Below, piece after piece: positions 22,501 to 60,500 of a DNA stretch of 64,000 bases (positions within the stretch are counted from its first letter, which is position 1; each line of letters opens with the position of its first letter). The position numbers and the translations under genes were made by a program. The notes under the pieces are model-generated. The model searched no databases. It saw only the letters and a list, made by a program, of their open reading frames with translations, and was not told the DNA's origin. This DNA comes from Antedon mediterranea (lineage: Eukaryota; Animalia; Echinodermata): contig NC_092673.1 of assembly GCF_964355755.1 (NCBI RefSeq), positions 5,642,001-5,706,000 on the forward strand, read 5' to 3'.

Positions 22501-23862
22501 TCTGTTGTATTTTATTTGGCATAAGTTGGCTGTTAGTCATGAAAAGGTGGCCCTCTCGACCCAACCATGTGAATTCTTTTCAGTTTCCCTTGATGTCTCA
22601 AGCTCTGTATTCTTTATTTAAGAAACCATTGTCAGTTTTGTCCTAGATGTGCCCATGCATATATTTTTGTTAAAGTCACTGTATAAAATACGTTGTATTT
22701 GACACATGCTTGTAAGCAGGTGATTGTAGTTTGAAACAAAGATTCTGAGATATAAGGAGATAGTACCATTTATTTTTGGCTTTTATTACTACCTAAAAGA
22801 AAAAGGTATTTTAAACATTCAATACCAGTTTTAATTTTCCATTCTCTTACTGTATCTCCACATAACGGTTTTGTTTGATTATGGCATTATATGGCCAGTA
22901 AGGAAAATCGTGCGGCACTTGTACTATGTTATGGTTAAGGTTAGGCTTGTGGCCTATGCGACAGGTGTCACATATGATGTACAAAGTATTCTAAAGATTA
23001 AATTACTAAACAATGCATATTTCACTGGTACTTCACTTTTGAAGCAATAAAGTTCTGTGACATAACAAGATAAATTAGCACATATGTGTATAATATATTA
23101 GTGAACACAAAAGCAATTAGCTTAAGTGTAACTATAATTGTGCAAGCCGGTAGCCAGGAGGGTTTGTAGGGTTTTCCTAAAGTGTCCAACAGCTGGTAAA
23201 TAGGTCTAACTTATGACACTAATGTTATGGCCAATTTAGCCAGCAGGCAAATTATTTTCATCTACTAGGTAGGCCCATGGAGAAATAAGTTAGGAACTTT
23301 TCTCCATGGTAGGCCTAAATCTACCTTTTTATGGAAAAAAGATCCCCCTTGCCCTGTAAAAATCCTGGCTACGGGCAGTTTTGCAATTGGACTAACATAA
23401 TGTAGTGCATTAGCCCATTTATTAGTATAAATGATACTAATTGTTAAGTTTATCCTTGTGATATAAGGTATATAATGTGTAAGGTAGATATGTATATGTA
23501 TATTGAAGATTAAAAAGATCACACCACCGATTTGGAATTTATTGTCCCTTTTCTCTTCATTTGCGTATTCTTTATTTCTCAGCACACATTTGATGAACAT
23601 GTAATCACCCCAGTACAGTACAAAAGAACTACAAGCCTACACAAGCCTACTGTGGTTTTTTCAGGAAACTCTACAATATGGAATTATGCGCTAATGTTAG
23701 ATATGATAAAAACTCCTGTGCTATAGCTCAGGTATTTTCTGATAAATCAAAATAAAGCAAAATAGTGTTGAGATGCACTCTCCCATGCCCAAACCAGCCT
23801 AGAAACATATTTTGGCGCATATAGTGGCCTATTGCCGAAAGCATCTAGGAAATCTGTCTATT

Positions 23863-25264
23863 TGTGTGATAGGTACCCCTGGGAGTAGATGTGCACCTCC
23901 CCATGCCCTTTGTGTGTGATAGTTATCCCTGGGAGTAGATGTGCACCTCCCCATGCCCTTTGTGTGTGATAGTTATCCCTGGGAGTAGATGTGCACCTCA
24001 CCATGCCCATGTGTGTGATAGTTATCCCTGGGAGTAGATGTGCACCTCCTCATGCCCATGTGTGTGATAGTTACCCCTTGGAGTAGGTGTGCACCTCTCC
24101 ATGCCCCACTGTGTGTGATAGTCATCCCTGGGAGTAGATGTGAACCTCCCCTATGCCCCTGTGTGTGAAGTATGTGTGTGCTAGTTACCCAAGGGAGTAG
24201 ATGTGCACCTCCCCTATGACCCTGTGTGTGGAGTATGTGTGTGATAGTTACCCTTGGAAGTAGATGTGCACCTCCTCATGCCCCCCCCCCTCCCCATGTG
24301 TGTGATAGTTACCCTTGGAAGTAGATGTGCACCTCCTCATGCCCGCTGTGTGTTATAGTTATCCCTCGGAGTAGATGTGCACCTCCCCATGCCCCAGTGT
24401 ATGATAGTTACCCCTGCGAGTAGATGTGCACCTCCCCTATGCCCCTGTGTGTGGAGTATGTGTGAGATAGTTACCCATGGGAGTAGATGTGTACCTCCCC
24501 ATTCCCCCTGTGTGTGATAGTTACCCCTTGGAGTAGATGTGCACCTCCCCTATGCCCCTGTGTGGAGTATGTGTGTGTGATAGTTACCCCTGGGAGTAGT
24601 CATGTACTGTACCTCCCCACGCCCCCTGTGTGTGATAGTTATCCCTGGGAGTAAATGTGCACTTTCCCTATGACCCTGTGTGTGGAGTATGTGTGTGATA
24701 GTTACCCTTGGAGTAGGTGTGCACCTCCCCGTGCCCAACTGTGTGTGATAGCTATCCCTGGGAGTAGATGTGCACCTCCCTATGCCCCTGTGTGTGGAGT
24801 ATGTGTGTGATAGTTACCCTTGGGAGTAGATGTAAACCTTCCTATGCCCCCCTGTGTGTGATAGTTATCCTGGGAGTAAATGTGCACTTTCCCTATGACC
24901 CTGTGTGTGGAGTATGTGTGTGATAGTTACCCTTAGAAGTTGATGTGCACCTCCTCATGTCCCCCCCCCCCCCTGTGTGTGATAGTTACCCTTGGAAGTA
25001 GATGTGCACCTCCACATTCCCCCTGTGTGTTATAGTTATCCCTGGGAGTAGATGTGCACCTCCCCATGCCCCAGTGTTTGATAGTTACCCCTTAGAGTAG
25101 GTGTGCACCTCCCCATGCCCTACTGTGTGTGATAGTTATCCCTGAGAGTAGATGTGAACCTCCCCTATGCCCCTGTGTGTGGAGTATGTGTGTGATAGTT
25201 ACCCATGGGAGTAGATGTGTACCTCCCCATTCCCCCTGTGTGTGATAGTTACCCCTTGGAGTAG
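23863..25264. repeat. GC-rich minisatellite (~46-60-bp unit), copy 1
   Basis: Unit TGTGTGATAGTTACCCCTGGGAGTAGATGTGCACCTCCCCATGCCCC with optional TGTGTGGAGTA insert. Confidence 0.95.
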
Positions 25265-25544
25265 TTGCGCCCCTATATAGTTTTTGATAAATTACTAATA
25301 ATGTTATGGTATCGATAGATTGTAAGCCAGCTGAATGGTTAGTTCTTGAGTCTCGTAATGTAACGCTGTAGTATTAGGTTAGGGTTAGAGAATTGATTTG
25401 ATACATATATATATATATATATATATTTAATATTTGTTTTACTCACCATCTTCTTTATTGACCATCATCTTTTCTCATCATTTTCTTAGAGGAATGTTTT
25501 TTTTTTGTTTTTGTTTTTTTTAATGAAAATATAACTTCAAGTCA

Positions 25545-25735
25545 ATGATAACAGCGCGCTTCATTGTTAAGCATTCAGGAAGACCATCATGATAACAGCG
25601 CGCTTCATTGTTAAGCATTCAGGTAGACCATCATGATAATCAGCGCGCTTCATTGTTAAGCATTCAGGTAGACCATCATGATAACAGCGCGCTTCATTGT
25701 TAAGCATTCAGGTAGACCATCATGATAACAGCGCG
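25545..25735. repeat. 44-bp tandem repeat x4.3 near island left end (also 31028-31218, ~38375-38566)
   Basis: Unit ATGATAACAGCGCGCTTCATTGTTAAGCATTCAGGTAGACCATC, near-identical copies, no spacers. Confidence 0.93.
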
Positions 25736-26036
25736 GCGCTTTATCGGAAAATTTTTACTAGAATCGGTAGTATACATTTTTATTTTATTCGATGAGAAGT
25801 GTATAATAATTACGCGATGTTATTTCTTACAGTAAACATACTATCTGTACATAATCATTATAAAGTGCCCGTTTATCAATGGTATTCTGGCATGTGTAAT
25901 GATTAAAACAGAGAACGAGACGACTAAATTTCATTCGTTTTATTGGCAACACACACGCACAAAAAATGTATACAATGTAATTTATATAAGACCATAAACA
26001 TAATATGAATGCACGGAGGTATGGTATGAAATCATT

Positions 26037-26973
26037 TCATAACGTTTGTTTTGAGCACGTACACGGTGAAAGTTTCTTTTCACCAGTCTTGTAAACCAAT
26101 GGTCTGAATGCGTGCAGTTTGTCCTTTTCTATAATTGCATCTTCTACCAGTCTTATATGGCGTAAATAAGTGTCCACGCCGTGTCCAAATCGTTCTCTCA
26201 GTTTAATCTTCGTACCATCGGACAACATTCTAATCCACGCTTTTCTTCGTTGAACGTGCGACGGTTCGGCTTCAAGAAATTGTGGTTCTTCTAACTTGAA
26301 TCTTAATCTATCACGATCTACTACCTCGGTTGTTGGATTTCGAAGCGTTTGTGTCAGATACGGATTTTTACACTTGTGTACCGGTAGACTACCGCCGTTC
26401 TTTTCGGCCAATTGCTGAATGTCTAACGTCTGAAACACATCTCTTGTACTACGATCCACGTACATGATGGTTTTACGTTCATTCATATTTTTAAACACGC
26501 ACTTTTCCAATACACTCTTGATCATCGATTCGTCGGCTTTCACTTTATAATGCTTACACGCGTCTTCCAATGAATTCAACGTCAACAGATTTACGTGAAA
26601 GAATACGTTCGGTGGTGGTGTTTCCGAGATGATCAAAGAAGAATTTATCAAGTGTCTCAAGTCGTTTGTTAGCAAATTCACACCGTTTCTCAGCTCATCC
26701 GCTTCGAACTCGTCATTTACCAGAACGCGTATTCGATTACCTCGGCACGCGTTTTTATCTTTGAGCACAACCTTTGTGCACAATTCGAGTATTTTTTTCA
26801 AGCGCCTATGTTGTGGCAAAAAGGCGCTAACGTGTACCATAAAGGCTCGAGCGTTCGACGTTTCCAATACCAATCTGCACGTGTGATCGTTGTTCATCAC
26901 CGGCGGTGGCATCGGTAGTCTATCTCTGCTACCGTCATATGATCTGCATTTCAACACCCTTAAACTGTCGGCA
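26037..26973 (-). pseudogene. C-terminal ~310 codons of virus-like helicase gene, copy 1 (5' part deleted)
   Basis: ORF 26037-26957 is nearly identical to 31574-32806 and keeps the original C-terminus (..VYKTGEKKLSPCTCSKQTL*); AATAAA on - strand at ~25939-25944. Confidence 0.75.
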
Positions 26974-28240
26974 CTTCACTCCACTTCTGAGAATCATCTT
27001 GAGCCTTAAGCGAAACCTTTAGTTGGCGGTGAAAACGTTCAACTAATCCATCTGACATAAGATTCGACCACGTCCACATAGACTTGGTAGGACCACTACC
27101 TTCATCGGATGGTTATACTTACCTACTTACATGTATCGATCGCTTTACAAGATGGCCAGAAGCCATATCAATCACCAATATTACCGCTGAAACTGTAGCC
27201 AAAGCGTTTGTCACTGTTTGGGTATCCAGATTCGGCGCGCCATCCACCATCACTACAGACCGTGGTCGTCAGTTCGAATCGGCACTATTCACCGCCCTAT
27301 CTAACATGTTGGGCACAAAACGCATTCGAACAACATCTTACCATCCTATGTCTCCGGACAGCGGTCAAAGTTGATTTAGGCTGTTCTTCATCGGAACTGG
27401 TGTATGGAGCAACCCTGAAACTTCCAGGGCAGTTTGTCGCGCCTACTGATATCGCCTCACATGAACCTGCGAATTACGTACATATATTGCAAAGACACAT
27501 GCAGAATATTCGACCAGTGCCAACACGAGCGAATCAACGCACCGCACAAATCCACGACGATTTGCGTGAATGTACTCACGTGTTTGTTCGTTGCGATAGC
27601 GTAAAGAAACCTCTTCAGTCTCCTTACAATGGGCCATTTAAAGTTTTAAACAGAACTGACAAATACTTTGTTTTGAGCATCGCAGATAAACATGAAACTG
27701 TTAGTTTGGACAGACTAAAAGTCGCCTATGTTAATAATGATAAAGCTATTAACAACTTTCCAGAATCGTCAAGGCAACCGGAAGCAGTGCTTTCCTCAAC
27801 CGCAAGTACTATTCCAGTCGCACCTCCGCCACGGCAAACGCGTAGCGGACGACATGTACACTGGCCACGTAAGCTTGCAGATTATGATTATTGTGCTGGA
27901 AGTTTTATACTAGAAACATTTTTTTTTATTCATCGCTCGCTAACATTTCATTTGCGATCTAGAGGGGAGCTGATGTAGAGGCAATTTGCATATGTGTTAG
28001 CAGGTGTAACGAACGGCATGCAAACCTTTTTATTCTTTGTCTCTCTCTCAACTACCGACCGTCGAACAAGCAGGACGTATTTGTTTTACTTACCGTTGTT
28101 TGTTAACTCAAGGAACTTTGCGTATCCTGTACATGTACAGAAGAAACTATATTATTGGAATATATTATGTGTATATAATTACGGAGCCAAGTATAAGAAG
28201 TTACTAATGATATTTGGACCCAATGCATGCTCTCACAACA
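26974..28240 (+). mobile_element. Gypsy/Ty3 LTR-retrotransposon 3' fragment (integrase, PPT, 3' LTR), copy 1
   Basis: Integrase [43 protein letters not shown] module PYNGPFKV, PPT AGAGGGGAG at 27961, probable LTR TGTAG..CAACA at 27974-28240. Inverted integrase piece ([11 protein letters not shown]) at 26974-27050. Confidence 0.85.
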
Positions 28241-29344
28241 CAGTATAGTGGGTAAGTTGGATCCTACTAAATGTCTAAACAGAAATATTTTTCAATGCTT
28301 CTCTCAAAATCCCCGAGCACTGTCACGTGTGGAACATAGCTATTTATCTTGGTTCGTTTTTTGACGTTCCACGACCCAATCGGCAATTGAAATGTTTAAA
28401 TGCATATTTTATTGTCGCCGTTGCTGAATCGTCTCGTTCTCGACAGGTGTCACATATGATGTACAAAGTATTCTAAAGATTAAATTACTAAACAATGCAT
28501 ATTTCACTGGTACTTCACTTTTGAAGCAATAAAGTTCTGTGACATAACAAGATAAATTAGCACATATGTGTATAATATATTAGTGAACACAAAAGCAATT
28601 AGCTTAAGTGTAACTATAATTGTGTAAGCCGGTAGCCAGGAGGGTTTGTAGGGTTTTCCTAAAGTGTCCAACAGCTGGTAAATAGGTCTAACTTATGACA
28701 CTAATGTTATGGCCAATTTAGCCAGCAGGCAAATTATTTTCATCTACTAGGTAGGCCCATGGAGAAATAAGTTAGGAACTTTTCTCCATGGTAGGCCTAA
28801 ATCTACCTTTTTATGGAAAAAAGATCCCCCTTGCCCTGTAAAAATCCTGGCTACGGGCAGTTTTGCAATTGGACTAACATAATGTAGTGCATTAGCCCAT
28901 TTATTAGTATAAATGATACTAATTGTTAAGTTTATCCTTGTGATATAAGGTATATAATGTGTAAGGTAGATATGTATATGTATATTGAAGATTAAAAAGA
29001 TCACACCACCGATTTGGAATTTATTGTCCCTTTTCTCTTCATTTGCGTATTCTTTATTTCTCAGCACACATTTGATGAACATGTAATCACCCCAGTACAG
29101 TACAAAAGAACTACAAGCCTACACAAGCCTACTGTGGTTTTTTCAGGAAACTCTACAATATGGAATTATGCGCTAATGTTAGATATGATAAAAACTCCTG
29201 TGCTATAGCTCAGGTATTTTCTGATAAATCAAAATAAAGCAAAATAGTGTTGAGATGCACTCTCCCATGCCCAAACCAGCCTAGAAACATATTTTGGCGC
29301 ATATAGTGGCCTATTGCCGAAAGCATCTAGGAAATCTGTCTATT

Positions 29345-30747
29345 TGTGTGATAGGTACCCCTGGGAGTAGATGTGCACCTCCCCATGCCCTTTGTGTGTG
29401 ATAGTTATCCCTGGGAGTAGATGTGCACCTCCCCATGCCCTTTGTGTGTGATAGTTATCCCTGGGAGTAGATGTGCACCTCACCATGCCCATGTGTGTGA
29501 TAGTTATCCCTGGGAGTAGATGTGCACCTCCTCATGCCCATGTGTGTGATAGTTACCCCTTGGAGTAGGTGTGCACCTCTCCATGCCCCACTGTGTGTGA
29601 TAGTCATCCCTGGGAGTAGATGTGAACCTCCCCTATGCCCCTGTGTGTGAAGTATGTGTGTGCTAGTTACCCAAGGGAGTAGATGTGCACCTCCCCTATG
29701 ACCCTGTGTGTGGAGTATGTGTGTGATAGTTACCCTTGGAAGTAGATGTGCACCTCCTCATGCCCCTCCTCCCCATGTGTGTGATAGTTACCCTTGGAAG
29801 TAGATGTGCACCTCCTCATGCCCGCTGTGTGTTATAGTTATCCCTCGGAGTAGATGTGCACCTCCCCATGCCCCAGTGTATGATAGTTACCCCTGCGAGT
29901 AGATGTGCACCTCCCCTATGCCCCTGTGTGTGGAGTATGTGTGAGATAGTTACCCATGGGAGTAGATGTGTACCTCCCCATTCCCCCTGTGTGTGATAGT
30001 TACCCCTTGGAGTAGATGTGCACCTCCCCTATGCCCCTGTGTGGATTATGTGTGTGTGATAGTTACCCCTGGGAGTAGTCATGTACTGTACCTCCCCACG
30101 CCCCCTGTGTGTGATAGTTATCCCTGGGAGTAAATGTGCACTTTCCCTATGACCCTGTGTGTGGAGTATGTGTGTGATAGTTACCCTTGGAGTAGGTGTG
30201 CACCTCCCCGTGCCCAACTGTGTGTGATAGCTATCCCTGGGAGTAGATGTGCACCTCCCTATGCCCCTGTGTGTGGAGTATGTGTGTGATAGTTACCCTT
30301 GGGAGTAGATGTAAACCTTCCTATGCCCCCCTGTGTGTGATAGTTATCCTGGGAGTAAATGTGCACTTTCCCTATGACCCTGTGTGTGGAGTATGTGTGT
30401 GATAGTTACCCTTAGAAGTTGATGTGCACCTCCTCATGTCCCCCCCCCCCCCCCCGTGTGTGTGATAGTTACCCTTGGAAGTAGATGTGCACCTCCACAT
30501 GCCCCCTGTGTGTTATAGTTATCCCTGGGAGTAGATGTGCACCTCCCCATGCCCCAGTGTTTGATAGTTACCCCTTAGAGTAGGTGTGCACCTCCCCATG
30601 CCCTACTGTGTGTGATAGTTATCCCTGAGAGTAGATGTGAACCTCCCCTATGCCCCTGTGTGTGGAGTATGTGTGTGATAGTTACCCATGGGAGTAGATG
30701 TGTACCTCCCCATTCCCCCTGTGTGTGATAGTTACCCCTTGGAGTAG
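29345..30747. repeat. GC-rich minisatellite, copy 2
   Basis: Same array as 23863-25264. Confidence 0.95.
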
Positions 30748-31519
30748 TTGCGCCCCTATATAGTTTTTGATAAATTACTAATAATGTTATGGTATCGATA
30801 GATTGTAAGCCAGCTGAATGGTTAGTTCTTGAGTCTCGTAATGTAACGCTGTAGTATTAGGTTAGGGTTAGAGAATTGATTTGATACATATATATATATA
30901 TATATATATTTAATATTTGTTTTACTCACCATCTTCTTTATTGACCATCATCTTTTCTCATCATTTTCTTAGAGGAATGTTTTTTTTTTGTTTTTGTTTT
31001 TTTTAATGAAAATATAACTTCAAGTCAATGATAACAGCGCGCTTCATTGTTAAGCATTCAGGAAGACCATCATGATAACAGCGCGCTTCATTGTTAAGCA
31101 TTCAGGTAGACCATCATGATAATCAGCGCGCTTCATTGTTAAGCATTCAGGTAGACCATCATGATAACAGCGCGCTTCATTGTTAAGCATTCAGGTAGAC
31201 CATCATGATAACAGCGCGGCGCTTTATCGGAAAATTTTTACTAGAATCGGTAGTATACATTTTTATTTTATTCGATGAGAAGTGTATAATAATTACGCGA
31301 TGTTATTTCTTACAGTAAACATACTATCTGTACATAATCATTATAAAGTGCGCGTTTATCAATGGTATTCTTGCATGTGTAATGATTAAAACAGAGAACG
31401 AGACGGCTAAATTTCATTCGTTTTATTGGCAACACACACGCACAAAAAATGTATACAATGTAATTTATATAAGACCATAAACATAATATGAATGCACGGA
31501 GGTATGGTATGAAATCATT

Positions 31520-34500
31520 TCATAACGTTTGTTTTGAGCACGTACACGGTGAAAGTTTCTTTTCACCAGTCTTCTAAACCAATGGTCTGAATGCGTGCAG
31601 TTTGTCCTCTTCTATAATTGCATCTTCTACCAGTCTTATATGGCGTAAATAAGTGTCCACGCCGTGTCCAAATCGTTCTCTCAGTTTAATCTCCGTACCA
31701 TCGGACAACATTCTAATCCACGCTTTTCGTCGTTGAACGTGCGACGGTTCGGCTTCAAGAAATTGCGGTTCTTCTAACTTGAATCTTAATCTATCACGAT
31801 CTACTACCTCAGTTGTTGGATTTCGAAGCGTTTGTGTCAGATACGGATTTTTACACTTGTGTAGGCCTACCGTTAGACTACCGCCGTTCTTTTCGGCCAA
31901 TTGCTGAATGTCTAACGTCTGAAACACATCTCTTGTACTACGATCCACGTACATGATGGTTTTACGTTCATTCATATTTTTAAACACGCACTTTTCCAAT
32001 ACACTCTTGATCATCGATTCGTCGGCTTTCACTTTGTAATGCTTACACGCGTCTTCCAATGAATTCAACGTCAACAGATTTACGTGAAAGAATACGTTCG
32101 GTGGTGGTGTTTCCGAGATGATCGAAGAAGAATTTATCAAGTGTCTCAAGTCGTTTGTTAGCAAATTCACACCGTTTCTCAGCTCATCCGCTTCGAACTT
32201 GTCATTTACCAGAACGCGTATTCGATTACCTCGGCACGCGTTTTTATCTTTGAGCACAACCTTTGTGCACAATTCGAGTATTTTTTTCAAGCGCCTATGT
32301 TGTGGCAAAAAGGCGCTAACGTGTACCATAAAGGCTCGAGCGTTCGACGTTTCCAATACCAATCTGCACGTGTGATCGTTGTTCATCACCGGCGGTGGCA
32401 TCGGTAGTCTATCTCTGCTACCGTCATATGATCTGCATTTCAACACCCTTAAACTGTCGGCAATCTCTTTCACGTCAACACCGACCGCAATTGATCCGTT
32501 TTCGTCGCAGTCTCCAGTCACACACGATTGGATTGCGAGTTTCCTAACGTACGCCAGTCGGGTCTCGTGAAAATCTAAATTTATTTTTATCCAGTATCTT
32601 TCTTCGTTGGTAAACTTTTTCGGCACCGATCCTAGATAATTGATGCTGGATTTGGGATCTTGAGAGTTTGACTGGCCCCTGTACGTAGGCCTACCGTATG
32701 TCGAGCGAAGACGGGCAAATGAGACAAGAAGCGTGCGGCTTGTGTAAGTTTTCCATTGAGCATAACGTAAATGTAATGTTTTCCCCTGTACTGTTTTGCA
32801 TTGCACATTCCTGCCATCATCACGTCCGATATTTCACGGTACTCGTTCGCATGTGACGAAAGATGAGCTTCCGTTGCCTCGCTACATTTGAACAGAAGCT
32901 GTTTTTGTCCGTTATCGTCCACTTTTCGAAACATCTTAATACTCCGTCCACCGTGCATGGCCAACAATATTGTTACATTGTTTGCGAGCAACACCCGTTT
33001 TGCGCGCTCTAAAATGGACAGAAGCGCCTCGGACATTACCATGTCGTGTAGTCGCTTCATGTCCTGTTGCATCAGCCACCGTTGATGTTTGGCTATGATT
33101 CTTGAATTGAGACAACAAGTGTTCTCGTTCGGTAATCGAGGTGTATTGGCGTGCAGAATTTGTAACGGACAGCCGTTCACTTGAATCACTGCATTGTGAA
33201 AGGCGCACAAACGTGCCAGGTCGATGAGTTTATTGATGGTTCTAGTTTCTGTGGCGAATCCGAATCGGACTCCTTGCCTTTCCATTTCGACAGATATTCT
33301 ATCGCAAGTCAACAGTAGCATACGATCGTCTTTGTACGAATCACCTTCCGATCGACGTGGATACAGACCGCACTCTGCCAACCGTACATGTTCCATTACT
33401 TTGTGGCGCAGAGCGCCGAATTGCGTTCGAATTTTTAAACGATCCAATTCCTTCTCGTATCCCTCCACTTTCTTGGGCACGTTGACAATCAACACCACTG
33501 GGTGCCACGTCAAAGGTGACAACTCGTTCGTTTAACGAGTTACACAAGTTTTTTTCGTTCATGGCCATTATGGTGGCATTATCGCAAACGTTGATTACGG
33601 TTCGAACACCGTGTCGAGTGGTTCCCGTGTTCGGATCCGTTACCTTCTCGGTTCGTTCGGTGCGCGTACAGCCGGAATCGAGTTCCTCTTTCATTATTGC
33701 CGCTTCTTGACTGCTTTCAATTGATAACGGATTCTTATCGCTTTTAGATCCAGACGACGGTGGCACAAATTCGTTCATGAAGCGTATTTTTTTTTAAATT
33801 GTTGTACTTTCGCTCATTGTCGACGAGCACGGCTTTCTGTGTTCGGTAAGTAACGTCGTCTGAGTAAGCGTTACCGATTACAGATTTAGCGGCTACCATC
33901 ACAGACGTTTTACCCGTAGCCTACCGGGAGGTCCTACCAGAATGGCGTTCATGGCCATCGCATCGTGTGGGCACACGATACGTATAGCCGACAGTAAAAT
34001 GTACAAAAGTTCACCTTTAGCGTTAGACACACCGGCTACATTACCTATCAGAGCCACCATGTTCAAAAGATATCGATAACCTATCGATATTTTCACGTCA
34101 GCTTCCTCTTCGTATACGAATGGAACAAAACTGCCGTCACTGTGTCAAGACGCGTTCATACACCAACCCTTCATCTCGGTATCCTACATATCGGCATACG
34201 ATTGCGTTATTACTTCGCTCATCTGCACGTGTTTTCCCATATGCACTTGCGTGTACATGTCGAAGAAAATTTTGGCGACAGTCTTGTCACGGTATCTTTC
34301 TGGAGTCTATTGCAAGTTGTGAAAATTCTTTCTCATCATCACTATGCCCGGATTCTTTGCCGTGTATTTTTCACCGTATAAATGCCTAAAATATAAAAAA
34401 AAACAATTATAAATCAAAAGTAAAACACGCACACTAGAATTTGTGTTGTGATGATGATGATGATGATGATAAAATACGTACCTCGAGTCTATGGTCACTT

Positions 34501-34610
34501 CGTTCTGATTCTGGTTGGTTACATACAGTTTTCCGATTGCCGAAATTTTGTCTTCGTCCAATTGCGCTGCATCATCGCGCATAGCGTGAACAAACAAATT
34601 TGTATTACTT
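31520..34610 (-). pseudogene. Virus-like AAA+ (MCM-like) helicase pseudogene, copy 2
   Basis: ORF fragments 34307-34597, 33899-34096, 33341-33778, 32632-33522 and 31574-32806 join through frameshifts and stops. Walker A AILVGPPGTGKTS (33906-33934, after removing a 5-nt insert), Walker B-like KIRFMNE, sensor-1-like TIMAMN, Arg-finger-like SLNER. GT-AG intron 34386-34481. Confidence 0.75.
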
Positions 34611-35593
34611 TGACTTTGACCGCTGTCCGGAGACCAAGAAGAACTAGAGGTAAAGTTTCACTCCACTTCTGAGGATCATCTCCGGACAGCGGTCAAAGTT
34701 GATTTAGGCTGTTCTTCATCGGAACTGGTGTATGGAGCAACCCTGAAACTTCCAGGGCAGTTTGTCGCGCCTACTGATATCGCCTCACATGAACCTGCGA
34801 ATTACGTACATAGATTGCAAAGACACATGCAGAATATTCGACCAGTGCCAACACGAGCGAATCAACGCACCGCACAAATCCACGACGATTTGCGTGAATG
34901 TACTCACGTGTTTGTTCGTTGCGATAGCGTAAAGAAACCTCTTCAGTCTCCTTACAATGGGCCATTTAAAGTTTTAAACAGAACTGACAAATACTTTGTT
35001 TTGAGCATCGCAGATAAACATGAAACTGTTAGTTTGGACAGACTAAAAGTCGCCTATGTAAATAATGATAAAGCTATTAACAACTTTCCAGAATCGTCAA
35101 GGCAACCGGAAGCAGTGCTTTCCTCAACCGCAAGTACTATTCCAGTCGCACCTCCGCCACGGCAAACGCGTAGCGGACGACATGTACACTGCCCACGTAA
35201 GCTTGCAGATTATGATTGCGGTTGAAGAAATTCTGTTATTTTATTGTGCTGGAAGTTTTATACTAGAAACATTTTTTTTTATTCATCGCTCGCTAACATT
35301 TCATTTGCGATCTAGAGGGGAGCTGATGTAGAGGCAATTTGCACATGTGTTAGCAGGTGTAACGAACGGCATGCAAACCTTTTTATTCTTTGTCTCTCTC
35401 TCAACTACCGACCGTCGAACAAGCAGGACGTATTTGTTTTACTTACCGTTGTTTGTTAACTCAAGGAACTTTGCGTATCCTGTACATGTACAGAAGAAAC
35501 TATATTATTGGAATATATTATGTGTATATAATTACGGAGCCAAGTATAAGAAGTTACTAATGATATTTGGACCCAATGCATGCTCTCACAACA
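34611..35593 (+). mobile_element. Gypsy 3' fragment (integrase C-terminus, PPT, LTR 35327-35593), copy 2
   Basis: [27 protein letters not shown]; preceded by an inverted integrase piece DDPQKWSETLPLVLLGLRTAVK. Confidence 0.85.
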
Positions 35594-36698
35594 CAGTATA
35601 GTGGGTAAGTTGGATCCTACTAAATGTCTAAACAGAAATATTTTTCAATGCTTCTCTCAAAATCCCCGAGCACTGTCACGTGTGGAACATAGCTATTTAT
35701 CTTGGTTCGTTTTTTGACGTTCCACGACCCAATCGGCAATTGAAATGTTTAAATGCATATTTTATTGTCGCCGTTGCTGAATCGTCTCGTTCTCGACAGG
35801 TGTCACATATGATGTACAAAGTATTCTAAAGATTAAATTACTAAACAATGCATATTTCACTGGTACTTCACTTTTGAAGCAATAAAGTTCTGTGACATAA
35901 CAAGATAAATTAGCACATTATGTGTATAATATATTAGTGAACACAAAAGCAATTAGCTTAAGTGTAACTATAATTGTGTAAGCCGGTAGCCAGGAGGGTT
36001 TGTAGGGTTTTCCTAAAGTGTCCAACAGCTGGTAAATAGGTCTAACTTATGACACTAATGTTATGGCCAATTTAGCCAGCAGGCAAATTATTTTCATCTA
36101 CTAGGTAGGCCCATGGAGAAATAAGTTAGGAACTTTTCTCCATGGTAGGCCTAAATCTACCTTTTTATGGAAAAAAGATCCCCCTTGCCCTGTAAAAATC
36201 CTGGCTACGGGCAGTTTTGCAATTGGACTAACATAATGTAGTGCATTAGCCCATTTATTAGTATAAATGATACTAATTGTTAAGTTTATCCTTGTGATAT
36301 AAGGTATATAATGTGTAAGGTAGATATGTATATGTATATTGAAGATTAAAAAGATCACACCACCGATTTGGAATTTATTGTCCCTTTTCTCTTCATTTGC
36401 GTATTCTTTATTTCTCAGCACACATTTGATGAACATGTAATCACCCCAGTACAGTACAAAAGAACTACAAGCCTACACAAGCCTACTGTGGTTTTTTCAG
36501 GAAACTCTACAATATGGAATTATGCGCTAATGTTAGATATGATAAAAACTCCTGTGCTATAGCTCAGGTATTTTCTGATAAATCAAAATAAAGCAAAATA
36601 GTGTTGAGATGCACTCTCCCATGCCCAAACCAGCCTAGAAACATATTTTGGCGCATATAGTGGCCTATTGCCGAAAGCATCTAGGAAATCTGTCTATT

Positions 36699-38097: not shown

Positions 38098-38867
38098 TTG
38101 CGCCCCTATATAGTTTTTGATAAATTACTAATAATGTTATGGTATCGATAGATTGTAAGCCAGCTGAATGGTTAGTTCTTGAGTCTCGTAATGTAACGCT
38201 GTAGTATTAGGTTAGGGTTAGAGAATTGATTTGATACATATATATATATATATATATTTAATATTTGTTTTACTCACCATCTTCTTTATTGACCATCATC
38301 TTTTCTCATCATTTTCTTAGAGGAATGTTTTTTTTTTTTTTTTGTTTTTTTTAATGAAAATATAACTTCAAGTCAATGATAACAGCGCGCTTCATTGTTA
38401 AGCATTCAGGAAGACCATCATGATAACAGCGCGCTTCATTGTTAAGCATTCAGGTAGACCATCATGATAATCAGCGCGCTTCATTGTTAAGCATTCAGGT
38501 AGACCATCATGATAACAGCGCGCTTCATTGTTAAGCATTCAGGTAGACCATCATGATAACAGCGCGGCGCTTTATCGGAAAATTTTTACTAGAATCGGTA
38601 GTATACATTTTTATTTTATTCGATGAGAAGTGTATAATAATTACGCGATGTTATTTCTTACAGTAAACATACTATCTGTACATAATCATTATAAAGTGCG
38701 CGTTTATCAATGGTATTCTTGCATGTGTAATGATTAAAACAGAGAACGAGACGGCTAAATTTCATTCGTTTTATTGGCAACACACACGCACAAAAAATGT
38801 ATACAATGTAATTTATATAAGACCATAAACATAATATGAATGCACGGAGGTATGGTATGAAATCATT

Positions 38868-41800
38868 TCATAACGTTTGTTTTGAGCACGTACACGGTGA
38901 AAGTTTCTTTTCACCAGTCTTCTAAACCAATGGTCTGAATGCGTGCAGTTTGTCCTCTTCTATAATTGCATCTTCTACCAGTCTTATATGGCGTAAATAA
39001 GTGTCCACGCCGTGTCCAAATCGTTCTCTCAGTTTAATCTCCGTACCATCGGACAACATTCTAATCCACGCTTTTCGTCGTTGAACGTGCGACGGTTCGG
39101 CTTCAAGAAATTGCGGTTCTTCTAACTTGAATCTTAATCTATCACGATCTACTACCTCAGTTGTTGGATTTCGAAGCGTTTGTGTCAGATACGGATTTTT
39201 ACACTTGTGTAGGCCTACCGTTAGACTACCGCCGTTCTTTTCGGCCAATTGCTGAATGTCTAACGTCTGAAACACATCTCTTGTACTACGATCCACGTAC
39301 ATGATGGTTTTACGTTCATTCATATTTTTAAACACGCACTTTTCCAATACACTCTTGATCATCGATTCGTCGGCTTTCACTTTGTAATGCTTACACGCGT
39401 CTTCCAATGAATTCAACGTCAACAGATTTACGTGAAAGAATACGTTCGGTGGTGGTGTTTCCGAGATGATCGAAGAAGAATTTATCAAGTGTCTCAAGTC
39501 GTTTGTTAGCAAATTCACACCGTTTCTCAGCTCATCCGCTTCGAACTTGTCATTTACCAGAACGCGTATTCGATTACCTCGGCACGCGTTTTTATCTTTG
39601 AGCACAACCTTTGTGCACAATTCGAGTATTTTTTTCAAGCGCCTATGTTGTGGCAAAAAGGCGCTAACGTGTACCATAAAGGCTCGAGCGTTCGACGTTT
39701 CCAATACCAATCTGCACGTGTGATCGTTGTTCATCACCGGCGGTGGCATCGGTAGTCTATCTCTGCTACCGTCATATGATCTGCATTTCAACACCCTTAA
39801 ACTGTCGGCAATCTCTTTCACGTCAACACCGACCGCAATTGATCCGTTTTCGTCGCAGTCTCCAGTCACACACGATTGGATTGCGAGTTTCCTAACGTAC
39901 GCCAGTCGGGTCTCGTGAAAATCTAAATTTATTTTTATCCAGTATCTTTCTTCGTTGGTAAACTTTTTCGGCACCGATCCTAGATAATTGATGCTGGATT
40001 TGGGATCTTGAGAGTTTGACTGGCCCCTGTACGTAGGCCTACCGTATGTCGAGCGAAGACGGGCAAATGAGACAAGAAGCGTGCGGCTTGTGTAAGTTTT
40101 CCATTGAGCATAACGTAAATGTAATGTTTTCCCCTGTACTGTTTTGCATTGCACATTCCTGCCATCATCACGTCCGATATTTCACGGTACTCGTTCGCAT
40201 GTGACGAAAGATGAGCTTCCGTTGCCTCGCTACATTTGAACAGAAGCTGTTTTTGTCCGTTATCGTCCACTTTTCGAAACATCTTAATACTCCGTCCACC
40301 GTGCATGGCCAACAATATTGTTACATTGTTTGCGAGCAACACCCGTTTTGCGCGCTCTAAAATGGACAGAAGCGCCTCGGACATTACCATGTCGTGTAGT
40401 CGCTTCATGTCCTGTTGCATCAGCCACCGTTGATGTTTGGCTATGATTCTTGAATTGAGACAACAAGTGTTCTCGTTCGGTAATCGAGGTGTATTGGCGT
40501 GCAGAATTTGTAACGGACAGCCGTTCACTTGAATCACTGCATTGTGAAAGGCGCACAAACGTGCCAGGTCGATGAGTTTATTGATGGTTCTAGTTTCTGT
40601 GGCGAATCCGAATCGGACTCCTTGCCTTTCCATTTCGACAGATATTCTATCGCAAGTCAACAGTAGCATACGATCGTCTTTGTACGAATCACCTTCCGAT
40701 CGACGTGGATACAGACCGCACTCTGCCAACCGTACATGTTCCATTACTTTGTGGCGCAGAGCGCCGAATTGCGTTCGAATTTTTAAACGATCCAATTCCT
40801 TCTCGTATCCCTCCACTTTCTTGGGCACGTTGACAATCAACACCACTGGGTGCCACGTCAAAGGTGACAACTCGTTCGTTTAACGAGTTACACAAGTTTT
40901 TTTCGTTCATGGCCATTATGGTGGCATTATCGCAAACGTTGATTACGGTTCGAACACCGTGTCGAGTGGTTCCCGTGTTCGGATCCGTTACCTTCTCGGT
41001 TCGTTCGGTGCGCGTACAGCCGGAATCGAGTTCCTCTTTCATTATTGCCGCTTCTTGACTGCTTTCAATTGATAACGGATTCTTATCGCTTTTAGATCCA
41101 GACGACGGTGGCACAAATTCGTTCATGAAGCGTATTTTTTTTTAAATTGTTGTACTTTCGCTCATTGTCGACGAGCACGGCTTTCTGTGTTCGGTAAGTA
41201 ACGTCGTCTGAGTAAGCGTTACCGATTACAGATTTAGCGGCTACCATCACAGACGTTTTACCCGTAGCCTACCGGGAGGTCCTACCAGAATGGCGTGCAT
41301 GGCCATCGCATCGTGTGGGCACACGATACGTATAGCCGACAGTAAAATGTACAAAAGTTCACCTTTAGCGTTAGACACACCGGCTACATTACCTATCAGA
41401 GCCACCATGTTCAAAAGATATCGATAACCTATCGATATTTTCACGTCAGCTTCCTCTTCGTATACGAATGGAACAAAACTGCCGTCACTGTGTCAAGACG
41501 CGTTCATACACCAACCCTTCATCTCGGTATCCTACATATCGGCATACGATTGCGTTATTACTTCGCTCATCTGCACGTGTTTTCCCATATGCACTTGCGT
41601 GTACATGTCGAAGAAAATTTTGGCGACAGTCTTGTCACGGTATCTTTCTGGAGTCTATTGCAAGTTGTGAAAATTCTTTCTCATCATCACTATGCCCGGA
41701 TTCTTTGCCGTGTATTTTTCACCGTATAAATGCCTAAAATATAAAAAAAAAACAATTATAAATCAAAAGTAAAACACGCACACTAGAATTTGTGTTGTGA

Positions 41801-43428
41801 TGATGATGATGATGATGATAAAATACGTACCTCGAGTCTATGGTCACTTCGTTCTGATTCTGGTTGGTTACATACAGTTTTCCGATTGCCGAAATTTTGT
41901 CTTCGTCCAATTGCGCTGCATCATCGCGCATAGCGTGAACAAACAAATTTGTATTACTTTGACTTTGACCGCTGTCCGGAGACCAAGAAGAACTAGAGGT
42001 AAAGTTTCACTCCACTTCTGAGGATCATCTCCGGACAGCGGTCAAAGTTGATTTAGGCTGTTCTTCATCGGAACTGGTGTATGGAGCAACCCTGAAACTT
42101 CCAGGGCAGTTTGTCGCGCCTACTGATATCGCCTCACATGAACCTGCGAATTACGTACATAGATTGCAAAGACACATGCAGAATATTCGACCAGTGCCAA
42201 CACGAGCGAATCAACGCACCGCACAAATCCACGACGATTTGCGTGAATGTACTCACGTGTTTGTTCGTTGCGATAGCGTAAAGAAACCTCTTCAGTCTCC
42301 TTACAATGGGCCATTTAAAGTTTTAAACAGAACTGACAAATACTTTGTTTTGAGCATCGCAGATAAACATGAAACTGTTAGTTTGGACAGACTAAAAGTC
42401 GCCTATGTAAATAATGATAAAGCTATTAACAACTTTCCAGAATCGTCAAGGCAACCGGAAGCAGTGCTTTCCTCAACCGCAAGTACTATTCCAGTCGCAC
42501 CTCCGCCACGGCAAACGCGTAGCGGACGACATGTACACTGCCCACGTAAGCTTGCAGATTATGATTGCGGTTGAAGAAATTCTGTCATTTTATTGTGCTG
42601 GAAGTTTTATACTAGAAACATTTTTTTTTTATTCATCGCTCGCTAACATTTCATTTGCGATCTAGAGGGGAGCTGATGTAGAGGCAATTTGCATATGTGT
42701 TAGCAGGTGTAACGAACGGCATGCAAACCTTTTTATTCTTTGTCTCTCTCTCAACTACCGACCGTCGAACAAGCAGGACGTATTTGTTTTACTTACCGTT
42801 GTTTGTTAACTCAAGGAACTTTGCGTATCCTGTACATGTACAGAAGAAACTATATTATTGGAATATATTATGTGTATATAATTACGGAGCCAAGTATAAG
42901 AAGTTACTAATGATTATTTGGACCCAATGCATGCTCTCACAACACAGTATAGTGGGTAAGTTGGATCCTACTAAATGTCTAAACAGAAATATTTTTCAAT
43001 GCTTCTCTCAAAATCCCCGAGCACTGTCACGTGTGGAACATAGCTATTTATCTTGGTTCGTTTTTTGACGTTCCACGACCCAATCGGCAATTGAAATGTT
43101 TAAATGCATATTTTATTGTCGCCGTTGCTGAATCGTCTCGTTTACGTTTTGTCTTTTTACGTTTCGGTTCATTATCATCATCATCATCATACAAGATCGT
43201 TGTCTGAAAACATTTCGCATCGGACGTCTGTCAAGAATGTTGTGTCCCATGCTGGCAGGTATCCGTTGTTATCAACAGTATGGACTTGACAACGTACTGT
43301 AACATTTTGTGCAAGCGTCGTGGGAAGATCAACCAGAACACGTAACCGCACGACACCTTGCCCCGAACCGTTTCATCCACGATGCGACTAGGTTCAATAA
43401 GAGAGCACACCAGTGCGTGACTGTTCAT
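38868..43428 (-). pseudogene. Virus-like AAA+ (MCM-like) helicase pseudogene, copy 3, probably including its N-terminus; interrupted by the Gypsy fragment
   Basis: Nearly identical to copy 2 over 38868-41958. Candidate 5' part at 42945-43428 begins MNSHALVCSL..CGYVFWLIFP and includes an acidic run plus NLS-like DDDDDNEPKRKKTKRKR. Linking the 5' part is inferred from strand, position and composition. Confidence 0.7.
41959..42944 (+). mobile_element. Gypsy 3' fragment (integrase C-terminus, PPT, LTR 42677-42944), copy 3
   Basis: ORF 42077-42574 is identical to 34728-35225; PPT followed by TGTAG..CAACA. Confidence 0.85.
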
Positions 43429-43514
43429 CGTTGCTTAGTTAAGCATAGTTAAGCTTATTTTAGTTACATTTTTTTTCACATTATTGATTGTCTCCATCCC
43501 CGAAACCTCGACTA

Positions 43515-43641
43515 AGAAATACCGGAATGGTGTCCGGCGGGGGATAGTTTATTACCATTAGTTAAGGTCCTATGTAAAGCACCTAGAGGGGTCAGTGATC
43601 CATTAGGCCCTATATAAATACTGTTTATTATTATTATTATT
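43515..43641 (+). mobile_element. SINE/LINE 3' tail fragment
   Basis: TGTAAAGCACCTAGAG..TATATAAATAC followed by a (TTA)n tail. Confidence 0.5.
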
Positions 43642-43642
43642 T

Positions 43643-43885
43643 TTAGTGCAACTGTAACGCTTTTCTCAACAACACCATCATCATTATGTACGTATGCGGG
43701 GAGCAATTGCGCAGCGAGTTTGTCGGTATTTCAAACGATTTCAACTCGACGCACATGATGTGCATGGGTTCACCAAACACAATATCGTCCGTAATTCGAC
43801 TGCCCGGCCATAATTCACATGGCAGTAGATCATCGGCTGTATTCTCAGATTTACTCATTTTCAACAACCGCGCGACTTTAACTAA
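43643..43885 (-). pseudogene. Unidentified CpG-rich ORF fragment of the island
   Basis: KVARLLKMSKSENTADDLLPCELWPGSRITDDIVFGEPMHIMCVELKSFEIP; same strand and composition as the helicase gene; no motif recognised. Confidence 0.35.
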
Positions 43886-57586: not shown

Positions 57587-60500
57587 AATAATAAATAATA
57601 ATAGTGTAGACAGAGCTTTAGATGTAGGATGGAGCTGAGTTATGAAGACATTTGAAGGTAATAAATAGAACTTTGAACTTCTGCGAGTCAGAAATAGGAA
57701 ACCAATGTAGTTGTAGTTGTTGTTTATGTTTTGTTTCTTACCGTTTCATGTTTGAATGAACTTTGACCAGGTTAAGAAGCACATACTGAAGTCTTGATTT
57801 TAGAATGTTTTTAAGTCCTTCAATCTCAGCATCATCACTATCTAACTCATGACTGTCATTTTTATCTCTCTTGTGTTCTGATAAATGAGTAGACGTATTT
57901 CTTTTTTCATAATCCAAACCCTCTTTAGAAATGTTTTGTTTTTTAAGTTTTTGAGATTCAGTTTTAAGATCTATTTGTTCTTTTTCTAAAACCTCTGATT
58001 GATTAGAAGTACAAGTGTCTCTTTTCTGACAATCTACTGCAGTCTCACTTTTGAATGATTCTAATTGGTTAGAAGTGTCCATGCCACTTTTGAACGCTTC
58101 TGATTGGTTAGAAGAGTCTATCTCAGTTTTGAACACTTCTGATTGGTTAGAAGAGTCTATCCCAGTATTGAACACTTCTGATTGGTTAGAAGAGCCTATC
58201 CCAGTTTTGGAAACTTCTGATTGGTTGAAAGTGTCTATCCCACTTTTAAATTCTTCTGATTGTTTAGAAGTGTCTATCTTCCGTTCTAATGCTTCTGATT
58301 GATTAGAAGTGTCTCTTTTCCTTACAACAGCAAGATTATTGGCTGGTTTATAAGTTTCTTTTTCAGGGATGGTTTCTGAGGTAGTAGCGGTGACATTAGT
58401 TTTAACTTGATCTATGCTATCAGCAGATCCAGTATCAGCAGATGTTACATGTTCTTTATCTAGTATTTGTATTGTATCTTTACACTGCAATAAAATATCC
58501 AAACAGCATTGCAAAGATTTAATCTTGGTTGAATTTCCTGTTTGACCTGTTGGGAGAGAGAAAATAAAAGAAATTTATTGAAAAATTATTAACAATTTTT
58601 TTATTGCAATTAATAATAATAGTTAATTTTACAAACGAAAGTGGATTGTTGATTCATAACTAAATACGGTTGAGGGAATTGACACAATTGGAAGAGAGAT
58701 TGGAATGTTCCATTTATAGCCATCATACAATATATTTGTTAAAACGTAAGTTTTACAAAGTAAAATAGTATTTTTAAAAGTTTACAATTATGATGTTGTA
58801 ATGGAGTTGTGTACCAAGATTCAGCAATTAAAAACAATTATTGTAAACAGAGATAAATAGTATACTTGTTATTATTAAACAAATAAAAATCAGTACTGAA
58901 AGAATGTACCAACTTTCTATATCATTGAGTATAAATTCGAAAAGTTAGGCGCGATTTACTGAAATTTGCCATTGCGTATATTTATATATAGAAACTGCAT
59001 GGTAGTAGAATTTCTGCTCAATTTGCATTCTTTGCTGTTGCTGTGAGTACGGGAAAATTTCCCAAATATATAAAAAATTAGAAAATCAATGAATTAGAAA
59101 ATATGATTAGTTAGTTAGTTGTAACCACTAACTAATCAATTGCCTAACCAGGCCTTTCTCTAGACACACATGATAATAACAAAATAAATACCAGTAATAT
59201 GATTACATAACTTACTATGGAACTGGTGTTCAATCATGGCAACCCTTTCAAGTTGTACCCTTAGAAGTTCTGTTGGTCTTTCAAGAACTCTAAACAATTT
59301 CTCAGCCTTCTCATAATAGTTATCTGCAAGGGATTTTGTGTAGCGTTTCTTTTTGTCACTCATCTAAAAACAAAATTTTGGTCGTGAAGAAGAATTATGC
59401 AACAAAAGCAGTGGTGTTATAACAAATATAGTATATTTTAACTTGGATAGGACACAGGACAATCAAGAGCATGGTAGTTCAACCGATAAATCTCAACACA
59501 ACCAATTACATCACTCTGATAGAAGATAAATGGTACCGTACTGTGGAACCGTAGTCATAACATCGGCAAGGGTTCGAGGCTCACCTGCTTCATGATTCTC
59601 GTGGTAGAACAAAGTTTTCTTGGATAAGGACTATAAACTGTCCAGTGTATACATCTAGATTATGTGCACACCTAGTACATCTTTCTAAACGAGTAGAAGG
59701 GTTACCCCGATATACTAGTACCCATCATACCTGGGTCTTCTGGGAGACCAGTCTTTGACTGAAGAGGATACCCAGTGTAAACAAATTTAAAATTCAAAGA
59801 CTAACCTGATTTCTTAGTGAACTGTGATACATTGAGGCCAGTCTGTAGTAGACATTAGCCATACGGAACTGATGCAAGACAGCATTACTGGATGATGGTT
59901 CCACTGATTCTGACAGTGATAACACTTCATGCATCAGATGAAGAATTTCCTTTTCAACCTTAACAAAAATATTTAAGGATTTTTAATTCTACTTAACCAA
60001 TAGGGAGAAAAAGTGATGACGTCACGTTTCCGACTGCGCTGGGTACAAACAAAGTTTGGTCGGCCATCTTGTCCTATTCTAACGCATTGATTTAACGCCG
60101 CTTTTTCGTACATCCCGATAACTTTCGTTTTTACATAATTTAGAGTTGATCATCTTGCTTTATTTAATTACTATGTTACTACTGTTGAATATTTTGCTGA
60201 TAATATATCGTAAGTAAAATAGCATTTTAAATTTCATGTTACAAGCACTTTTTAGGCCTCTTTCTTTGGCGACGAGTTTATACTAGCAGTATTTCTGCGT
60301 TTGTTTGTGGAAATGTGCGAATCAATATGCATTTCTAACTTTCAGTTTACTATTTATTTATTTATAATGTATTGCTTATTAAAGTTTGAGTTTTTAATAT
60401 GGTAGGTAAAATGTTGAATTTTACTAGTTTTGATGCATCTAGGCCAGATATGGGTCAAATTAATCGGCAAAATGTCGCTGCTATAGGCAGCTAAGAACGA

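Follow-up and report, generated by a model that had tools for sequence, protein, structure and literature searches.

A decayed viral gene between two animal genes and its intact relatives, predicted MCM-type helicases resembling alloherpesvirus Allo56

The 64-kb stretch of DNA analysed here (the window) contains a broken, tandemly duplicated viral gene, flanked on either side by an animal gene. Its likely source is an unnamed alloherpesvirus-like herpesvirus, and we predict homology to Allo56 and an MCM-type ring helicase as the product, a reading to which we give a probability of roughly 70%. The window copy is of value as a record of the host and as a lead to the family of intact relatives.

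A dead viral gene in host DNA

The initial annotation had read several minus-strand fragments as collinear pieces of one gene, and this was borne out: in tblastn, successive parts of the relative P0001 matched the minus strand in order between 43843 and 38874 (E 9e-13 to 1e-105), and 20 of 20 shuffled P0001 controls scored at most 28 bits versus 363 bits for the real protein. The gene runs on the minus strand from 43858 to ∼38880. An intact 1375-aa relative aligned to the window copy with 49% identity across 1149 residues, and the AAA+ core was 75–80% identical to P0001 residues 534–675. A Pfam search with 10 fragments of the window gene and P0001 returned no match at E 0.05. The parts of the gene and its surroundings are listed below in window coordinates; residue numbers follow the relatives.

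7958..18212, plus strand: host choline transporter exons (SLC5A7-like), left flank; human CHT1 matched by the last exon at E 3e-39, other exons by inspection
22959..28438: copy 1, a partial unit with residues ∼1067–1374 and a longer portion of the retrotransposon, 99.2% identical over 4 kb (self-comparison and tblastn)
28441..35791: copy 2, a 7.35-kb tandem unit of host minisatellite plus the gene from ∼residue 185 on, 99.8% identical to copy 3 (self-comparison)
38880..40375, minus strand: remainder of the predicted winged-helix region and a C-terminal region of unknown fold, residues 888–1372, with three frame changes and one late stop (alignment and structure search)
40376..40838, minus strand: helical lid with the sensor-2 region, residues 676–831, ending at an internal deletion of ∼56 codons (model and alignment)
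40839..41733, minus strand: AAA+ core, three stops upstream of Walker A (motifs and alignment)
∼40873, minus strand: Arg finger (motif alignment)
∼40906, minus strand: sensor-1 Asn (motif alignment)
∼41120, minus strand: Walker B Glu, followed by the pre-sensor-1 hairpin (motif alignment)
∼41283–41252, minus strand: Walker A, broken by a frame change (motif alignment)
41734..41830, minus strand: 97-nt AT-rich intron-like segment, a candidate intron, with GT...AG ends and coding matches on both sides (sequence and alignment)
41831..41960, minus strand: short coding piece ahead of the intron-like segment, 30% identical to P0008 residues ∼352–409 (alignment)
41962..42975, plus strand: LTR retrotransposon remnant, which we take to be of the Gypsy type, with integrase C-terminus, LTR-like end and short inverted piece, oriented opposite to the gene (likeness to copy 1)
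42976..43430, minus strand: second gene piece, residues 79 to ∼240, broken by three frame changes and including an acidic/basic linker (alignment)
43440..43640: ∼200-nt insert breaking the gene, a high-copy host repeat (alignment gap, repeat depth, lower CpG)
43640..43858, minus strand: 5′-most gene piece, P0001 residues ∼1–78, starting with ATG (alignment to the relative, ATG in the sequence)
57738..62356, minus strand: host EDRF1 exons, right flank (Pfam TPR_EDRF1 6e-23 and 5e-7)

The window copy is a pseudogene, carrying 9 frame changes outside the inserts, 4–5 stops, the Gypsy remnant, a second insert and two deletions. Because P0001 residues ∼240–340 (∼100 codons, at the retrotransposon remnant) and 832–887 have been lost, it is shorter than its intact relatives, which mostly have 1350–1550 aa. 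The earlier estimates of its extent needed correction: the gene starts at ∼43858 rather than 43428, and ∼1150–1200 codons survive. Both breaks previously named in copy 2 are real, corresponding to the frame changes at ∼41268 and ∼41142 of copy 3, within the larger total of nine; the ∼650 codons placed downstream of the core were correct.

The insert at 43440..43640 reached a summed contig depth of 270–7900 in three runs and is likely a retroelement tail. In copy 1, the sequence of the retrotransposon remnant comes after an rve integrase piece (Pfam 2.6e-14), and the remnant region contains a 21-nt inverted repeat. The viral pieces have a GC content of 0.43–0.46 and a CpG o/e of 1.35–1.6; the corresponding values of the host flanks are 0.29–0.31 and 0.5–0.6. 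No other viral gene remains within the 64-kb window, and a search upstream of the gene revealed no polymerase remnant.

The stretch or part of it was found in 11 runs from four organisms, five of which contained at least half of its words; no RNA run was among those listed as carrying it. The joint at 41983–42028, present in all four runs compared, was rejected as a shared retrotransposon insertion because intact retrotransposon copies elsewhere could yield the joint by way of the inverted repeat. Over 4.5 kb, copies 2 and 3 differ at only 6 places, most of them homopolymers, and the number of tandem copies may therefore be an effect of assembly. The same closeness would fit a stretch that is not inherited host DNA at all, but a mis-assembly or a free virus assembled along with the host. 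A replicating virus could not, however, carry nine frame changes, stops and two host-repeat inserts; in run X1, one contig spans 38600–42026, joining the viral gene to the retrotransposon remnant with zero mismatches, and runs of other organisms carry the stretch at ∼97–98% identity, which makes this explanation extremely improbable.

Retention in several organisms, duplication and the transposon remnants close by might instead suggest that the host kept the copy as a source of antiviral small RNAs, or that it arrived with a transposon–virus hybrid like Teratorn. We regard this as very unlikely, since the gene is not bracketed by transposon ends and the inserts and one deletion vary among samples, as expected for neutral decay. 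Embedded in host DNA, decayed and interrupted by host repeats, the window copy is a dead endogenous viral gene fragment.

Intact relatives retain the AAA+ motifs

From 26 HMMER hits, we removed two false ones with other domains (P0024, P0029) and the fragments P0011, P0021, P0026, P0027 and P0028 before counting motifs. The AAA+ motifs are retained in 23 relatives of 1056–1554 aa: the Walker B Glu, sensor-1 Asn and sensor-2 Arg in 23/23, and the Walker A Lys and Arg finger in 22/23 each. The first Asp of Walker B is not kept, with N, S, G, P or E in its place, and the relatives conserve a long pre-sensor-1 hairpin that bears basic residues. In the tree, the window copy is sister to P0001 (support 100/100), within a clade of 11 that includes P0004, the family protein of a 37.9-kb viral locus (L001).

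The motifs occur in the order described initially (Walker A, Walker B, pre-sensor-1 hairpin, sensor-1 Asn, Arg finger) and lie on the expected strands in the model of a relative. The cellular MCM signatures IDEFDKM and LLSRFD are both absent, as had been stated, but SRF does occur at the Arg finger in several relatives. The best Pfam MCM score was 12.4 bits against a cut-off of 23.3; with IDEFDKM also missing, the family is not a cellular MCM orthologue.

A single-sequence HMMER search listed no named alloherpesvirus protein; no sequence link to Allo56 emerged, 0 of 20 clusters examined having an informative name; PHROGs gave no match to P0001 or the L001 protein; and IMG/VR scans with P0001, A1, A4, the L001 primase and ORF 51889–52449 found no relative. 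PDB sequence searches returned P-loop matches only. An ESM Atlas search of the core gave 0.92 to unnamed and primase-family clusters, which we treat as a lead.

The predicted fold is closest to MCM

Structure searches used a model (pLDDT 78.6) of the L001 relative rather than of the window copy; a first model built from nine sequences (pLDDT 48.9) was set aside. Among 48,161 PDB representatives, the first 10 rows were all MCM proteins (best Z 18.8, rmsd 3.5, 272 aligned), and a second comparison gave Z 19.6 to MCM. The MCM-type AAA+ domain is placed at residues ∼470–888, with an MCM-like hairpin and displaced sensor-2 helix modelled within 488–886. A winged helix is predicted at 884–996, where the matches to winged-helix chains were middling (Z ∼7.5). 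Cch reached Z 11.2 and SF3 helicases Z 8–9, with the SF3 motors of D5, SaPI5 and ASFV at Z 7–8.5; an SF3 assignment was therefore rejected, and the MCM-type fold suggested initially is supported at the level of the model. We thus predict that the AAA+ domain of the family is of the MCM type.

A different function for an Allo56-like viral protein deserves mention here, namely that its AAA+ domain remodels proteins in the manner of MoxR/RavA or chelatases, perhaps during packaging or the assembly of capsids, rather than unwinding DNA. RavA (Z 16.0) came within 3 Z units of MCM, ahead of BchI (14.2) and MoxR-like 2r44 (13.0); seven family members have weak Pfam AAA_5 matches, and alloherpesviruses already own a PIF1-like helicase-primase. 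The N-terminal tier of MCM (A domain, zinc finger, OB fold) also drew no match in searches that covered this region as part of the full-length model, matches starting near residue 430–470. Yet ten MCM rows rank above RavA, the model has the MCM order of motor and then winged helix, and the long basic pre-sensor-1 hairpin is conserved. The viral matches and genomic neighbours described below likewise point to DNA replication, and we consider a remodelling function unlikely.

Viral neighbours and the link to Allo56

Neighbouring genes were read at two loci, in 21.7 of the 37.9 kb of L001 and in the 5.8-kb L002. At L001, a B-family polymerase gene (PolB, Pfam 6e-18) lies divergent from the family gene, accompanied by dNK and a primase with a Herpes_UL52 domain above cut-off. 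L002 contains a primase, 28% identical to that of L001, and a terminase-like ORF or exon (PHROG E 0.002, Atlas 0.97). The polymerase thus adjoins the family gene in one of the two loci, and the primase takes that place in the other. Of the 12 core genes expected of Alloherpesviridae or Herpesvirales, among them those for a herpes-type capsid, triplex, protease and PIF1-like helicase, the regions read contained only polymerase, primase and the terminase-like exon besides the family gene. The neighbours sought in the initial annotation were found in part: polymerase at L001 and a terminase-like ORF at L002, with no capsid gene in either region.

A search of viral models matched ORF111 of ranid herpesvirus 2 (RaHV-2) over its full length (E 2.7e-22, TM 0.56 over 1276 columns) and 'Protein Allo56' of lake sturgeon herpesvirus at E 1e-12 with a poor global fit (TM 0.25, rmsd 31). 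These alloherpesvirus proteins were the only named full-length structural matches; the next named non-herpes row had E 2.6e-6 over ∼500 columns, and most other named matches were primase-helicases and DUF3987/DUF927 proteins. Among the named rows of the best 50 matches, 22 of which are unnamed, there was no malacoherpesvirus, orthoherpesvirus or mirusvirus. We took ORF111 to be Allo56 on the basis of length (1320 aa versus ∼1316 codons for RaHV-2 Allo56) and position; in the RaHV-2 genome, polymerase (−) and Allo56 (+) are divergent neighbours.

Neighbours and full-length matches together uphold the origin in a large nuclear DNA virus proposed at the outset. The MCM-like helicase could still derive from a different terminase-bearing large DNA virus, an unplaced duplodnavirus or one resembling mirusviruses, rather than from a herpesvirus close to alloherpesviruses. 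Both searches matched the terminase-like ORF to phage terminases, the L001 polymerase has no named herpesvirus relative among the matches found, no capsid gene was seen and, to our knowledge, BFVD contains few mirusviruses. Opposed to this are the exclusively alloherpesviral named full-length matches, the UL52-type primase domain, and two gene arrangements known as alloherpesvirus traits, the divergent polymerase–Allo56 pair and a primase adjoining a terminase exon (PMC12567609). We judge such a donor quite unlikely and retain an alloherpesvirus-like source.

PMC12567609 counts Allo56 among the core genes of alloherpesviruses, the herpesviruses of fish and frogs, and describes its function as unknown. 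From fold and gene order, we predict that Allo56 is an MCM-type (SF6) helicase. These viruses likely have a ring-shaped DNA-unwinding enzyme that is unreported in the literature searched. That literature, mostly outside subscription journals, contained no paper connecting Allo56/ORF56 to MCM or AAA+. The initial suggestion that MCM-like helicases occur in fish and mollusc herpesviruses found no support: those assigned there are PIF1-like SF1 enzymes (PMC4889955 supplement; PMC13030845).

Proposed mechanism and comparison with known systems

By the established MCM mechanism, six subunits would form a ring. ATP would bind at the interfaces, where one subunit contributes Walker A/B and sensor 1 and its neighbour the Arg finger and sensor 2, and one DNA strand would be drawn through the pore by the pre-sensor-1 hairpins. 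Viral DNA would so be opened for the neighbouring polymerase and primase, by a fork helicase or an origin-opening initiator; we infer that the role is replicative. The window gene probably entered a germ line and lost its viral neighbours, and it is decaying.

In a survey from 2016, SF6 helicases were confined to bacterial and archaeal viruses and were not found in eukaryotic ones (PMC4889955), a range that Allo56 as an SF6 enzyme would extend. We give slightly better than even odds to the following reading: Allo56 is a ring helicase of the MCM type (SF6) or an initiator that opens origins, is the first of this class in eukaryotic viruses, and marks a wide unnamed lineage of invertebrate alloherpesvirus-like viruses, one of them the source of the window fossil. 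If so, alloherpesviruses possess an MCM-type motor in addition to the PIF1-like helicase-primase, which may explain how they open origins. The prediction gives a testable function to a protein kept by every alloherpesvirus yet listed as unknown, and makes the family a marker for alloherpesvirus-like viruses outside vertebrates.

Allo56 (the ictalurid herpesvirus 1 ORF56 family, with RaHV-2 ORF111) resembles the relatives in length (targets of 1220–1320 aa), in full-length predicted fold and, at L001, in its divergent pairing with the DNA polymerase. Identity in model-against-model comparison is 11–14%, no hit appeared at the sequence level, and the known viruses infect fish and amphibians, whereas the window host is probably an invertebrate. 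With archaeal MCM, eukaryotic MCM2–7 and MCM8/9, the relatives have in common the AAA+ core, preceding helices, pre-sensor-1 hairpin, sensor 1, Arg finger, sensor-2 helix and following winged helix (Z 18.8–19.6), but they are about twice as long, 11–15% identical and without IDEFDKM or the first Walker B Asp; their N-terminal 430 and C-terminal 400 residues had no MCM match in structure searches. MCM-like helicases of phages and mobile elements (DUF3987, DUF927, SCCmec Cch, SaPI Rep, fusellovirus ORF A460) match the motor in part, yet belong to prokaryotic elements, are shorter and reach E 1e-6 or weaker without a full-length match. Endogenous herpesvirus elements of animals are likewise herpesvirus-derived DNA in animal chromosomes; a preprint describes divergent lineages in invertebrates, with polymerases placed between Ortho- and Malacoherpesviridae. 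Those elements comprise several genes or whole genomes, whereas the window holds a single decayed gene without a transposase fusion.

A decayed viral gene between two host genes

Used as a query against 5162 candidates, the longest natural ORF retrieved one protein, P0001 (1375 aa, E 2e-104), whose collinear matches to the window, all minus-strand, span 43843 to 38874. Shuffled versions of P0001 scored ≤28 bits in all 20 trials. The ordered matches, together with this control, confirm the proposal of the initial annotation that the ORF fragments are pieces of one gene. Of the limits it had assigned (38868..43428), the single minus-strand gene stood, but its start lies further upstream, at about 43858. 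A frameshift-aware comparison aligned 1149 of the 1375 P0001 residues at 49% identity, with 75-80% in the ATPase core. The sequence lies in tandem repeats flanked on the left by choline-transporter exons (last exon against human CHT1, E 3e-39 and about 46% identity as counted from the alignment) and on the right by EDRF1 exons:

22959-28438: copy 1, partial unit
28438-35791: copy 2, tandem unit between the choline-transporter and EDRF1 exons
35791-43142: copy 3, 99.8% identical to copy 2, tandem repeat between the host genes
near 43440-43640: insert in copy 3, about 200 nt
41962-42975: retrotransposon remnant in copy 3, where about 100 codons of the viral gene are missing
41734-41830: putative intron of the viral gene, 97 nt, AT-rich, with GT and AG ends
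near 40375: deletion in copy 3, about 56 codons

Only copy 3 holds the 5′ part of the gene. It carries four or five stops and nine frame changes (near 43270, 43195, 43066, 41268, 41142, 40836, 40353, 40317 and 40030), one of them within Walker A, and the 97-nt piece looks like an intron judging by its sequence. The viral pieces have a GC content of 0.43-0.46 and a CpG o/e of 1.35-1.6; the flanks have 0.29-0.31 and 0.5-0.6, host DNA in the window generally being about 30% GC and low in CpG. This low GC, together with the divergence from the human transporter, suggests an invertebrate host. The locus is a dead fossil of a single viral gene.

Several other elements were seen nearby. Immediately upstream of the gene is a CpG-rich high-copy repeat region (44300-46100; summed depth hundreds to thousands), followed by the decayed remains of a LINE (46561-50443, plus strand), in which Pfam recognised endonuclease and reverse-transcriptase pieces. 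A 186-aa ORF (51889-52449, plus strand) in DNA both CpG-rich and AT-rich had no match in Pfam, PHROG or IMG/VR. The DNA transposon at 53249-55813 has 39-nt terminal inverted repeats beginning CACAGTG and, around 54675-55178, the decayed remains of an ORF on the minus strand; we take it to resemble Transib, and it gave no family hit. Downstream of the gene, a 44-bp tandem repeat (38376-38566, 31028-31218 and 25545-25735) is possibly viral, since it sits inside the CpG-rich zone. The adjoining 50-bp minisatellite is CpG-poor and recurs at 56004-56228.

A family with an intact ATPase motif set

With the core as query, 9 proteins were found among 5662 candidates, and HMMER returned 26 at E 0.001 or better from 1.84 billion representatives, including two false matches and five fragments. 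None of the 20 clusters looked up bore an informative name. The Walker A Lys and the Arg finger are each retained in 22 of 23 aligned relatives, and the Walker B Glu and the sensor-1 Asn in all 23, as is an Arg further along, in the sensor-2 position; the first acidic position of Walker B is not Asp. In a tree with an arbitrary root, the window copy was sister to P0001 (100/100) within an 11-member clade; the other clade had 14 members, and P0030 formed a long branch. One relative, P0023, sits on a 1.34-Mb contig and could be an endogenous copy, still intact, in a different host.

Predicted fold

A model of residues 1-1190 of the relative at locus L001, built from 35 sequences, reached a pLDDT of 78.6. 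Compared with 48,161 PDB representatives, its first ten matches were all MCM (best: Z 18.8, rmsd 3.5, 272 aligned, residues 488-886), ahead of RavA (Z 16.0), BchI (14.2), ComM (13.3), BrxL (12.6) and Cch (11.2), with SF3 helicases at Z 8-9. A second structural comparison gave Z 19.6, and Foldseek on the PDB also ranked MCM top, weakly (E 9e-4). Residues 884-996 matched winged-helix chains (Z about 7.5); an MCM-type motor followed by a winged helix is predicted. Among viral models the best match was ranid herpesvirus 2 (RaHV-2) ORF111 (E 2.7e-22, TM 0.56, 1276 columns, 11% identity), which, judging by its length, is presumably the RaHV-2 Allo56. Two unnamed entries (2e-21, 1e-14) came next, ahead of a lake sturgeon herpesvirus entry named 'Protein Allo56' (1e-12, yet TM 0.25); a ranid herpesvirus 4 protein stood at rank 7.

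Replication genes adjoin the relatives

Two loci, L001 and L002, came from 324 pattern matches among JGI records. At L001 a B-family polymerase (Pfam 6e-18) is divergent from the family gene. Downstream come a deoxynucleoside kinase and a primase whose Herpes_UL52 domain scores 23 bits against a cut-off of 21. At L002 the primase is the divergent gene (28% to that of L001, E 2e-32); beyond it, a terminase-like ORF (PHROG E 0.002; Atlas 0.97 to terminase ATPase clusters) loses its likeness after about 200 residues, exon-like. No relative of any of these 15 neighbours was found in the window.

According to PMC12567609, Allo56 is among 12 core alloherpesvirus proteins, of unknown function, and lies back-to-back with the polymerase; the primase is located where the terminase intron ends. 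The RaHV-2 polymerase (144909-149246, minus) and Allo56 (149354-153304, plus) are likewise divergent (PMC10410580). The family is likely, on the modelled matches, homologous to Allo56. The parts available of PMC12031113, PMC5822658, PMC10175614, PMC10537993, PMC12096621, PMC5249073 and an ictalurid herpesvirus 1 cryo-EM preprint give no function for Allo56. No Allo56-MCM link was found in the literature searched, which was mostly open-access and hence is no proof of novelty.

Further features were noted at L001. Its polymerase (4984-7509) is short, 841 aa; Pfam gave no exonuclease hit for it, and scoring 7991 candidates yielded no close relative. Two small adjoining related genes (12663-13657), one weakly matching C1q (E 0.025), are possible C1q/TNF-like immune mimics. 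A lower-GC fragment amid the viral genes (3981-4502) gave no Pfam hit and presumably resembles a retrotransposon; L001 may itself be integrated.

Proposed role

Together, the MCM matches, replication-gene neighbours and herpesvirus models support the earlier suggestion of an MCM-type helicase of a large DNA virus. The ATPase motif set is intact in the family, and replication genes adjoin it. The protein is predicted to act like MCM but is not a cellular MCM orthologue. By analogy with established MCM biology, six subunits would assemble into a ring, with ATP bound at the interfaces between them and hairpins pulling one strand through the pore. The protein would most plausibly open viral DNA for the adjoining polymerase and primase, acting either at the fork or on the origin. 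An initiator role is possible, since alloherpesviruses have a PIF1-like helicase: PMC4889955 assigns allo- and malacoherpesvirus helicases to PIF1-like SF1 and states that SF6 is missing from viruses of eukaryotes. We favour, at a probability of roughly 0.7, a duplicated, broken gene of an alloherpesvirus-like virus, an Allo56 homologue predicted to be an MCM-type ring helicase. With four gene types only and no capsid gene seen, the donor is no more than a candidate member of Alloherpesviridae. The significance lies in a predicted function for Allo56 and an unnamed virus lineage.

Lesions in other samples

The stretch or part of it was present in eleven runs (six studies, four organisms), five of which held half its words or more. 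Among four runs compared, an X1 contig spanned 38600-42026 with zero mismatches, so that X1 may be the source sample, and X6 covered 38600-41957 but differed at 81 letters. Where the window copy has its deletion, X2 and X6 contigs carried about 164 extra letters, and those of X6 and X9 continued beyond 42975 with letters unlike the window. Since lesions vary between samples (X2, X6, X9), some of them are recent.
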